From UHGV virus genome UHGV-0007119: a stretch of 41,353 nucleotides of DNA. One strand, written 5' to 3'. The stretch's first letter is position 1, and each line of letters begins with the position of its first letter. The notes below the pieces were generated by a model. The model made no database searches. It was not told where the DNA came from and saw only the letters and a program-made list of their open reading frames with translations. Position numbers and translations under genes: made by a program. The stretch is from a virus. Positions 1-41,353 of the stretch are shown here, piece by piece.

Positions 1-149
1 GATAGCCTCATCAATAATAAGGCTTTATGCTAGATGCATTCCGCTTTGCGACTCAACCTTTTTCACCTAAAGGATGACAAAACCACATAAATAATTTAAA
101 AATCATAGCATTAGATTACTTAATGATTAAATAATAGACTGCAAAACGC

Positions 150-220
150 GACAAAACACAACATATCCAGTCACTATGAATCAACTACTTAGATAGTATT
201 AGTGACCTGAGACAGAGCAT
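150..220. other. att-site P arm with lambda-type Int arm-binding motifs
   Basis: Reverse complement closely matches the remembered lambda attP P-arm (…AGGTCACTAATAC…CATAGTGACTG…); arm-type motifs CAGTCACTAT at 168-177 and AGGTCACTAAT (rc) at 198-208. Confidence 0.6.
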
Positions 221-420
221 TAGCGCAAGGTGATTTTTTGTCTTCTTGCGCTAATTTTTTGTCATCAAAACCTGTCGCACTCCAGAGACGCACAAAGCCT
301 TGCAATCCAGTGCAAAGATTTGTGTGTTTAAATTTTGTCTAAGCATTCTAGTGAAAACATAGTAAAATCAGTAACGGCTGGAAATCATTCAATACTCGCA
401 CTATCGAAAGTTAACCAGCC

Positions 421-579: not shown

Positions 580-2730
580 TTACGGCGCACTGGATAAAAT
601 AGACTTCGTCTTCGTAACAATAACATCTACAAAATCACCTGCAGATATAGCTGATGGTACTGTATCTGCAAGAGTAATCTTTCCTGAAGAGATGTTTTGC
701 ACATCTAATAATTTATTTTCAACCCCATCCGTATATACCAATTTGACATCACTGAATGGAGGGTAATAAGTGGCTGTTCCTTGGTATACATATATTTCAC
801 TGCCTGAAATTGATTTCACTACATACCTGCCCCTTACAAGATTAATTTTGATTTCAGATAAATCGGTTTTATAACAGGTAATTCCTGAACCAATGTTAGC
901 CATACTAATATCAGTATCACTATAATAAGTAATTGCTTTTCCTTGTTTTAAGGTGAAGTTATCTTTTCTTTTCCTTGGCAAGGATGTGCTATTTTTGTAA
1001 TATCTACCAGTTAAGCATAGCCATGAAAATGCAGTATTCGCTACATTACCACCAGAATACACAGCTAAACGAATTGCACTAACTGGAACCCCTTCATTAT
1101 TAATCCTGATCTTAATGGAAGAAATGTTAGCAACAGTAGCATATCTATGGTTAGATGAATCCCATTGCATAGAAGAAGTTATTGCTTCTGTTTGTGAAGT
1201 TATGACATTCCCATCTCCATCTAATGCATACAGGTAAATGCGAAACGATGCCGTATCTGCTGAGAATGTAAACATATCACCATTTCTTACTGGTACATCT
1301 CCAGATTCCCATAACAACCCAAAATTCCGCATAAAAGCAAACTTAGAAGAAACCAGGTGACGGATATTATATAAACCATCTACATCTGTTTGATATGCTA
1401 ATACACCAACTTCTCCATTGTTGGCACTGGATATAAATGGGGTGTTAGCATTTAAAGAAAACAATGTTACTTCATCGGATATATTTTCCTGAACATGAAA
1501 TACTGCATTCCCCTTGCCATTATCAGTTACCTCTACATAAGTGTAAGGTGATGGATTGTATGGTTCATTTGTATAGTAAGGAGAACTTAACCATGAAGCC
1601 TCAATTGAGTTATTCCACGTATATTCACCAAAGTTAATTATCAACTGTTGGTTAGTTATGGATGATGGATATCGTTCAAAACGAAACCCGTAGAAGTAAT
1701 TGTTATCACCTCTTTGAATATCAATTTTACCTGCCCCCTCCATAGTTCCACCATAAAACTTATTGTGGTTATGATGATATGGATTATCAGCGAAAATGAT
1801 ATTATTCGTACGATTCAGATAAAAATAGTTTTCATTTATCCATCCTTTCTCAACTCCAAGAAAATGAATTGTATCGACCTTTTTCAGGTTAAAGGTTGAG
1901 TATGCTATTGAATAATCCGTCGATGCCACCGAAGCATTATAATTTGCATATAACTGTAAGTAGTCGCAACGCTCAATGTTAATATGCTGCCCTTTTGCCC
2001 CGATAATACGAATATCCGGTGTCGTTTCAGATGAAATACCAGAATTTCTGATAATCGTTCCGAAGTTTTGTCTTGGGTTGTTAGGGTTTGATGCATTCCC
2101 GCCAAGCAATACCCCTATTCCTGAGTGGGATATGGTAAAAACAGCATTGGTCATTTCGAGGCTGACATTACGAAGATTTAATGTCTCCGTAATAATAAAA
2201 TTACCTTCCGCTCGTAATGTTCTGGATGATTCTCGTGCATATTCTGCAGCCAAGATCAATGCAGATGTGTCATCTGTTATACCATCGCCTTTTGCCCCCC
2301 ACCCTCTTACATCACAATCGTCCCTCCACCGAGATATCTGCAATTCAGGATATTTTTTAGCTCCATCCGGGTCTTCTAATTGCTGCCGTAGTTGATCAGG
2401 GTCATACTTCAGCACATTAGGAAAATAAAACTGCTGAGTGCCATATGCATCATATACAGCCATAGAATGGCCTTGCACAGTTACGAATTTGGCAATCTGC
2501 CCGTTATATACCGGATATCCAGCAGCGTTAATGATGATTGGTTGCGAAACGGGAACATGAGAGCCGTCTTCGTTCTCCACATAAACCTGAATCTGGTTTT
2601 CAGGATTTACCGGGTCAGTGTCAATTTTTCCGATATAAATTTTGCCATTGGCAACCGCTTTAAAAGAACGCGCCATAGTGAAGAGTTGCGAAGGCATCGA
2701 TACGATCACATTGGCTGTAATGTCTGTCAT
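580..2730 (-). CDS. Tailspike protein: P22-type N-terminal head-binding domain, divergent beta-helix receptor-binding domain
   Basis: 716 aa; first ~110 aa ([11 protein letters not shown]…NVLKYDPDQ) match the remembered P22 gp9 head-binding domain; the rest is unrelated with a [13 protein letters not shown] pectate-lyase-like motif and lower GC. Confidence 0.9.
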
Positions 2731-40083: not shown

Positions 40084-40302
40084 ATGTACTTGACACTTCA
40101 GGAGTGGAACGCACGCCAGCGACGCCCAAGAAGCCTTGAAACAGTTCGTCGATGGGTGCGCGAATGCAGGATATTCCCTCCTCCGGTTAAGGATGGAAGA
40201 GAATATTTGTTCCACGAATCAGCGGTAAAGGTTGACTTAAATCGACCAGTAACAGGTAGCCTTTTGAAGAGGATCAGAAATGGGAAGAAGGCGAAGTCAT
40301 GA
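40084..40302 (+). CDS. xis: Excisionase Xis (lambda type)
   Basis: 72 aa MYLTLQEWNARQRRPRSLETVRRWVRECRIFPPPVKDGREYLFHESAVKVDLNRP…, matches remembered lambda Xis; 3' end overlaps int. Confidence 0.9.
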   Translation: MYLTLQEWNARQRRPRSLETVRRWVRECRIFPPPVKDGREYLFHESAVKVDLNRPVTGSLLKRIRNGKKAKS

Positions 40303-41353
40303 GCGCCGGGATTTACCCCCTAACCTTTATATAAGAAACAATGGATATTACTGCTACAGGGACCCAAGGACGGGTAAAGAGTTTGGATTAGGCCGAGACA
40401 GGAGGATAGCAATCACTGAAGCAATACAGGCCAATATTGAGTTACTCTCAGACAGCGGACGCAAATCACTGATAGACAGAATTAAAGGCGCTGACTCAAT
40501 CACTCTTCATGTGTGGCTTGACCGATATGAAACAATTCTCAGCGAGAGGGGCATCAGACCGAAAACTCTACTCGACTACGCCAGCAAAATCAGGGCAATC
40601 CGAAGAAAATTGCCGGACAAACCGCTCGCTGACATATCAACGAAAGAGGTGGCAGCAATGCTAAACACCTACGTAGCAGAAGGTAAAGCGGCTTCCGCAA
40701 AATTAATCAGGTCAACCCTTGTTGACGTTTTTCGTGAGGCAATAGCCGAGGGGCATGTAGCAACGAATCCGGTAACAGCAACCCGTACAGCAAAGTCAGA
40801 AGTAAGGCGCTCAAGGCTGACAGCTAATGAGTATGTCGAGATTTACCATGCAGCCGAACCTCTCCCTATCTGGCTAAGGCTGGCGATGGATTTGGCCGTC
40901 GTTACAGGACAGAGAGTCGGCGATTTGTGCAGAATGAAATGGTCAGACATAAACGACAACCATCTTCACATTGAACAGAGTAAAACAGGGGCTAAACTCG
41001 CCATTCCGCTAACGCTAACGATTGACGCGCTCAATATCTCATTGACTGATACACTACAGAAATGCAGGGAGGCCAGCAGCAGTGAAACTATAATCGCATC
41101 AAAGCATCACGATCCGCTTTCCCCGAAAACAGTATCAAAGTATTTTACAAAGGCGAGAAATGCATCTGGACTCTCATTTGATGGAAACCCACCAACATTC
41201 CATGAACTGCGTAGCCTGTCAGCGAGGCTATACCGGAACCAGATTGGCGATAAGTTTGCTCAACGTCTTCTCGGGCATAAATCAGATTCAATGGCGGCGC
41301 GGTATAGGGACAGCCGTGGACGGGAATGGGACAAAATTGAAATCGACAAATGA
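40280..41353 (+). CDS. int: Tyrosine integrase (lambda Int family)
   Basis: 357 aa; first 55 residues identical to remembered lambda Int arm-binding domain; remainder related but diverged; catalytic …HELRSLSARLY… region conserved. Confidence 0.95.
   Translation: MGRRRSHERRDLPPNLYIRNNGYYCYRDPRTGKEFGLGRDRRIAITEAIQANIELLSDSGRKSLIDRIKGADSITLHVWLDRYETILSERGIRPKTLLDYASKIRAIRRKLPDKPLADISTKEVAAMLNTYVAEGKAASAKLIRSTLVDVFREAIAEGHVATNPVTATRTAKSEVRRSRLTANEYVEIYHAAEPLPIWLRLAMDLAVVTGQRVGDLCRMKWSDINDNHLHIEQSKTGAKLAIPLTLTIDALNISLTDTLQKCREASSSETIIASKHHDPLSPKTVSKYFTKARNASGLSFDGNPPTFHELRSLSARLYRNQIGDKFAQRLLGHKSDSMAARYRDSRGREWDKIEIDK

Follow-up and report, generated by a model that had tools for sequence, protein, structure and literature searches.

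The DNA stretch analysed here as a whole (41,353 nt, hereafter the window) is almost certainly a complete or near-complete P22-like (HK620/Sf6-like) prophage that carries the int-xis-attP module of bacteriophage HK022 and occupies the HK022 attB, between torT and torS. It starts at the base that follows the torT start codon of E. coli and ends with the int stop codon. The HK022 module, the torS/torT attB and P22-like prophages at this locus have all been published already, and the observation is a real and ordinary one. A preliminary description of the window had proposed that its integrase combines lambda arm recognition with a different core specificity, as in the relationship between lambda and HK022. 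This proposal was borne out by an Int with 97.2% identity to that of HK022 and by an HK022 core, and the sole correction to be made is one of degree, as the module is that of HK022 itself and no new specificity is involved. Given that the similarities in the att and core regions amount to 80-100% identity across hundreds of bases, chance is not an issue in these comparisons. The features of the window are listed in Table 1.

TABLE 1. Coordinates of the features of the window, and core sequences of the attachment sites.
Feature	Position	Strand	Basis or remarks
Host E. coli DNA, torT-proximal part of the torT-torS intergenic region, including the B' arm of attB(HK022)	1..61	.	Match to K-12
Core-type region of attR (C-O-B'), CTTTAGGTGAAAAAGGTTG	54..72	-	Single exact match in the window
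7-bp overlap (crossover), TTCACCT / AGGTGAA	62..68	.	Sole block common to attP, attB, attL and attR
P arm of HK022-type attP	69..214	-	Alignment to HK022 and lambda attP
Xis/Fis-site region, within P arm	~130-165		Alignment to lambda/HK022 attP
Arm-type Int site P2, CAGTCACTAT	168-177	+	Identical in window, HK022 and lambda
Conserved block between P1 and P2, corresponding to lambda H1	within P arm		Identical or nearly so in the three phages
Arm-type Int site P1, AGGTCACTAAT	198-208	-	Identical in window, HK022 and lambda
sib / tI hairpin and T-run, int retroregulation and terminator element	219..260	+	Near-identical to lambda and HK022
Tailspike-type ORF	580-2730	-	716 aa; counterpart in strain 100117 is the RefSeq "phage head-binding domain-containing protein"
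xis, excisionase	40084..40302	+	72 aa; overlaps int start
int, HK022-type tyrosine integrase	40280..41353	+	357 aa; window ends with its stop codon (last three bases)
attB, K-12			...caaccttt TTCACCT aaagtgcac...
attR, window			...caaccttt TTCACCT aaaggatgac...
attP, HK022 and Gally			...caacttaTTCACCTaaaggatgac...
attL, strain 100117			...caacttaTTCACCTtaagtacac...

Attachment junctions between torT and torS

Sequence comparison identifies the left end of the window as the attR junction, which reads P-O-B' on the minus strand. The first 61 bases were 100% identical to the K-12 MG1655 DNA located directly upstream of torT, with base 1 adjoining the torT ATG, and no homology of this segment to HK022 or Gally attP was found in the alignment. 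The match to the window in strain 100117 begins right after the last base of the torT CDS, and torT likewise adjoins base 1 in the four complete E. coli genomes that contain positions 1-699 at >99% identity. On the phage side, the C site plus overlap, ATCCTTTAGGTGAA, is identical to those of HK022 and Gally attP. The homology to both attP sequences breaks at the left edge of TTCACCT, at position 62, and this edge is reached by the homology to K-12 attB. From this switch of homology at 62-68, together with the identity to K-12, it follows that positions 1-61 are host DNA, as had been suspected for the first ~60 bp. The torT-torS intergenic region is 82 bp long, and the HK022 attB lies between these two genes according to Yagil et al. 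(1989), as cited in PMC6814406.

The attR core joins a C side equal to that of HK022/Gally attP to a B' side equal to that of K-12 attB, the empty site in K-12 being GCACTTTAGGTGAAAAAGGTTGAG. By sequence comparison alone the crossover falls somewhere in 62-72, and it is resolved only to this interval because K-12 attB and attP have TTCACCTAAAG in common. The B, O and P' segments were assigned after Yagil et al. (1989), again as cited in PMC6814406. The lambda core GCTTTTTTATACTAAGTTG, whose overlap is TTTATAC, had no match with up to three mismatches anywhere in the window, and the aligned core columns differ from lambda, so the core region is indeed unlike the lambda core, as first noticed.

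A circularly permuted free-phage genome, with an unbroken attP directly downstream of int and its P' arm at positions 1-61, would also account for a window that ends at the int stop codon, given that a lambda-type attP directly follows int, and that has ~61 bp from its start to the core, close to the 73 bp of the P' arm. This explanation is practically untenable in view of the complete identity of positions 1-61 to the DNA upstream of K-12 torT and of the position of torT directly beside base 1 in the four genomes; furthermore, the segment is unlike the P' arms of HK022, Gally and lambda, which bear P' arm-type sites such as TTTTATTTTGACTAATAATGACC.

With the left end taken as attR, attL (B-O-P') would be expected past position 41353, and it would consist of ~73 bp of P' arm (TTTTATTTTGACTAATAATGACC...ATATACAACTTA), TTCACCT, ~14 bp and the torS GTG. 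It must be noted that the window ends at the int stop codon, and that attL and the P' arm were read from near-identical prophages and not from the source genome. In the four genomes mentioned above, whose attR and tailspike regions are >99% identical to the window, the prophage sits between torT and torS. The attL of strain 100117 comprises the int stop codon, 73 bp of P' arm, TTCACCT, 14 bp and the annotated torS GTG, and the int-torS arrangement of AST240 is annotated in the same way. Near-identical prophages thus contain, where it should lie, the repeat of the core that had been anticipated downstream of int, a place that is beyond the end of this window. [quoted passage not shown]

The core site of the B arm varies with the host, being TAAGTACACTGACC in strain 100117 (attL locus 702-715) vs. 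AAAGTGCACCGACC in K-12. The B-side base that adjoins the overlap is T in strain 100117 and A in K-12, which is a host polymorphism, and this difference in the B arm reduces the identity between attP and attB from 11 to 7 bp in strain 100117.

Integrase, excisionase and core specificity

Int showed 97.2% identity to HK022 Int over 357 aa, with 10 substitutions (tblastn of the phage collection and alignment), and 75.4% to lambda Int. Judged by its sequence, and given its identity to HK022 Int, it is an HK022-type integrase, a variant of HK022 Int itself and not merely a protein in a lambda/HK022-like relation. No difference from lambda Int occurs in residues 1-55 (100% identity) before F56L, and the core-binding (65-169) and catalytic (170-end) domains have 70.5 and 72.9% identity to those of lambda, respectively; both the identical N-terminus and the related, substituted remainder had been recognized in the preliminary description. 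The catalytic residues R212, K235, H308, R311, H333, and Y342 (lambda numbering) are all present (6/6). The substitutions with respect to HK022 Int are found at positions 58, 59, 60, 62, 73, 78, 137, 187, 256, and 261. The first four of these form a cluster in the stretch (58-62) that links the arm-binding domain to the core-binding domain. The excisionase has the sequence of HK022 Xis, and a single residue sets it apart from lambda Xis. The xis-int stretch was present at at least 95% nucleotide identity in ~450 of the RefSeq records searched.

Dorgai, Yagil and Weisberg reportedly showed in 1995 that lambda Int acquires HK022 core specificity through the changes N99D, S282P, G283K, R287K, and E319R. 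PMC10863862 cites N99D and H329R for the change from lambda to HK022 core specificity. The Int of the window has the HK022 residue at each of these positions, with D99, P282, K283, K287, and R319 read from the alignment and R329 from the printed sequence FAQRLLGHK.

In this regard, an integrase with a core specificity unlike those of both lambda and HK022, with the prophage inserted at a new attB, could be proposed from the 10 substitutions with respect to HK022 Int and from the B-side core of some host strains, which differs from that of K-12. We consider it very improbable, as none of the 10 differences is located at 99, 282, 283, 287, 319, or 329, the phage-side core and overlap are those of HK022 attP, the host side is that of the HK022 attB in K-12, and the locus is the published HK022 site. 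The identity of core, overlap and attB to those of HK022 and the unchanged specificity positions therefore indicate that Int has no new core specificity. The expectation of a non-lambda attB was correct, this site being the published HK022 attB at torT-torS, whereas the lambda attB lies between gal and bio.

According to what is known of the biology of lambda and HK022, the N-terminal domain of Int, whose residues 1-55 are those of lambda, would bind the arm sites, while recognition of the HK022 core sites and strand exchange at the overlap edges would fall to the diverged core-binding and catalytic domains. The direction of the reaction would be set by the P-arm sites for Xis, IHF and Fis, and any effect of sib on int transcripts would require an intact attP. 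Once integrated, sib and int have the whole phage genome between them. The location of sib and the P arm at the end opposite to int is what had initially been described as an att arm at the opposite end.

P arm, sib/tI and related integration modules

Positions 62-265 of the window are 97% identical to Gally, 90% to HK022 and 80% to lambda, and the stretch that matches the P arm is annotated as attP in the HK022 records. The likeness of the left end to the lambda attP P arm had been pointed out previously, and the two arm-type motifs reported at that time correspond to lambda P2 and P1. A search of the whole window with the arm-site consensus MAGTCACTAT, allowing one mismatch, gave 8 matches vs. 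4.4 expected and is uninformative by itself; the P1 and P2 calls are based on position and on the alignment to lambda and HK022. In the P-arm spacer (69-165) the identity to HK022 drops to ~85-90%, with two changes where the lambda X2 site aligns.

The sib element is annotated in the HK022 and HK97 records, and an RNA hairpin of -29.7 kcal/mol was predicted for positions 205-272 of the window. A simple terminator scan gave nothing at the sib/tI site because the hairpin loop exceeds the limit of the scan. Past sib, positions 262-340 are similar (~87%) to the lambda b-region flank of attP, which is also found in HK106, HK97, and phi80. The P22-like tailspike gene starts only after this flank, which shows the size of the transplanted att-int cassette.

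Compared with HK022 (NC_002166; Yagil et al., 1989), the window has an identical C core site and AGGTGAA overlap, identical P1 and P2 sites, a near-identical sib, the same torT-torS attB and, in its near-identical prophages, the same 73 bp from the int stop codon to the junction. However, HK022 has its own genome backbone (Hendrixvirinae in the taxonomy line of its record) vs. the P22-like podovirus backbone found here, and differences are also found in the ten residues of Int and in the diverged P-arm spacer 69-165, the overall identity being 90%. With lambda, the window shares Int residues 1-55, P1, P2, the block between them and sib/tI, all identical or nearly so, and the att architecture, but identity drops to 70-73% in the core-binding and catalytic domains, the core and overlap bear no resemblance to those of lambda, and attB is at torT-torS.

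The closest comparison is provided by Gally (OV696608), a prophage of AIEC LF82 that is a P22/HK620-like podovirus with an HK022-type int-xis-attP and that supplies the uninterrupted attP of the lineage of the window. It is a P22-like prophage integrated between torS and torT (PMC9928086). Its P arm is 97% identical to positions 62-265 of the window and its int stop codon is likewise 73 bp from the overlap, whereas its Int differs at 21/357 residues, its tailspike region is unlike that of the window, and beyond its P arm it has an 84-bp CPS-53/argW-type int relic (1830-1913) that the window does not have. Phage vB_EcoP-611R6 was tried as a reference for the uninterrupted attP and rejected, having a CPS-53/argW-type integrase and only a relic P arm. 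Its record (ON470589; 819-1976, 2554-2762) contains the intact CPS-53/argW-type integrase beside tRNA-Arg and a relic of an HK022-type P arm that starts exactly at the overlap TTCACCT. The Gally relic, in turn, is the 3' end of a CPS-53-type int located just past the P arm. Both relics are traces of the swapping of integration modules among HK620-like podoviruses.

Because of the 10 differences in Int and the diverged P-arm spacer, a regulation identical to that of HK022 is an assumption. It is conceivable that a Gally-type P arm and the Int substitutions clustered at 58-62 have co-adapted and mark a subtype of the HK022 module circulating in P22-like prophages. This idea, which we regard as a long shot, arises from the identity of the P arm (97% to Gally vs. 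90% to HK022), from the two changes aligned with X2 and from the substitutions at Int 58-62. If it were true, the subtype could differ in the control of excision or in its effect on torS/torT expression.

Prophage type and consequences for the host locus

With respect to the phage backbone, HK620 matched positions 300-25000 of the window at 95% nucleotide identity with 64% of the stretch covered, and the matches include the portal, terminase, coat and DNA-transfer protein genes. The virion and DNA-injection gene set of the P22/HK620 type is present together with a tailspike, which assigns the prophage to the P22-like group (Lederbergvirus). The length of the window, ~41.3 kb, is that of a full P22-like genome, and long intact ORFs extend across the stretch of virion genes that matches HK620.

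Positions 1-699, which include the 3' end of the tailspike gene, were found in just 4/5,426 complete E. coli genomes at a coverage of at least 80%, and the tailspike-type ORF at 580-2730 is therefore rare. The similarity to phages of the HK620 type starts only at ~2,000 in the window, a sign that the receptor-binding domain of the product of this ORF may be a distinct one.

It could be argued that the prophage is a defective and immobile remnant whose att and int are functionless relics, considering that attL was read in relatives and not in the source genome, that the near-identical prophage of AST240 carries IS100 near xis, and that relic half-att sites exist in related phages such as vB_EcoP-611R6. 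Nevertheless, both int and xis are uninterrupted ORFs of full length, Int retains every catalytic residue, the length and the intact ORFs of the virion stretch matching HK620 are those of a full P22-like phage, and the related prophage Gally was active in experiments (PMC9928086). A remnant is, in consequence, unlikely. In AST240 (NZ_AP043633, locus 351-2152), a DUF551 gene has been truncated by the IS100 element (istA/istB), which lies ~1 kb upstream of xis.

A complete or near-complete P22-like prophage with the HK022 module is in keeping with what has been reported for this site. Approximately 5% of E. coli genomes have prophages with HK022 Int at torS-torT, with attL in the same position, and the content of the prophages found there varies considerably (PMC6814406). 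A prophage at this site replaces the torS promoter with a phage-borne one, altering the regulation of TMAO reductase (PMC6814406). HK022 itself raises the expression of torS and turns torCAD off under aerobic conditions. In the prophage studied here, the phage promoter driving torS would be part of attL or close to it, which places it at the right edge of the window or past it.

As a discovery, the finding carries little weight, given that the HK022 Int/att system, its attB and such prophages are all in the literature. [quoted passage not shown] In addition, the lysogen may show an altered regulation of torS and TMAO reductase, as occurs in HK022 lysogens (PMC6814406).
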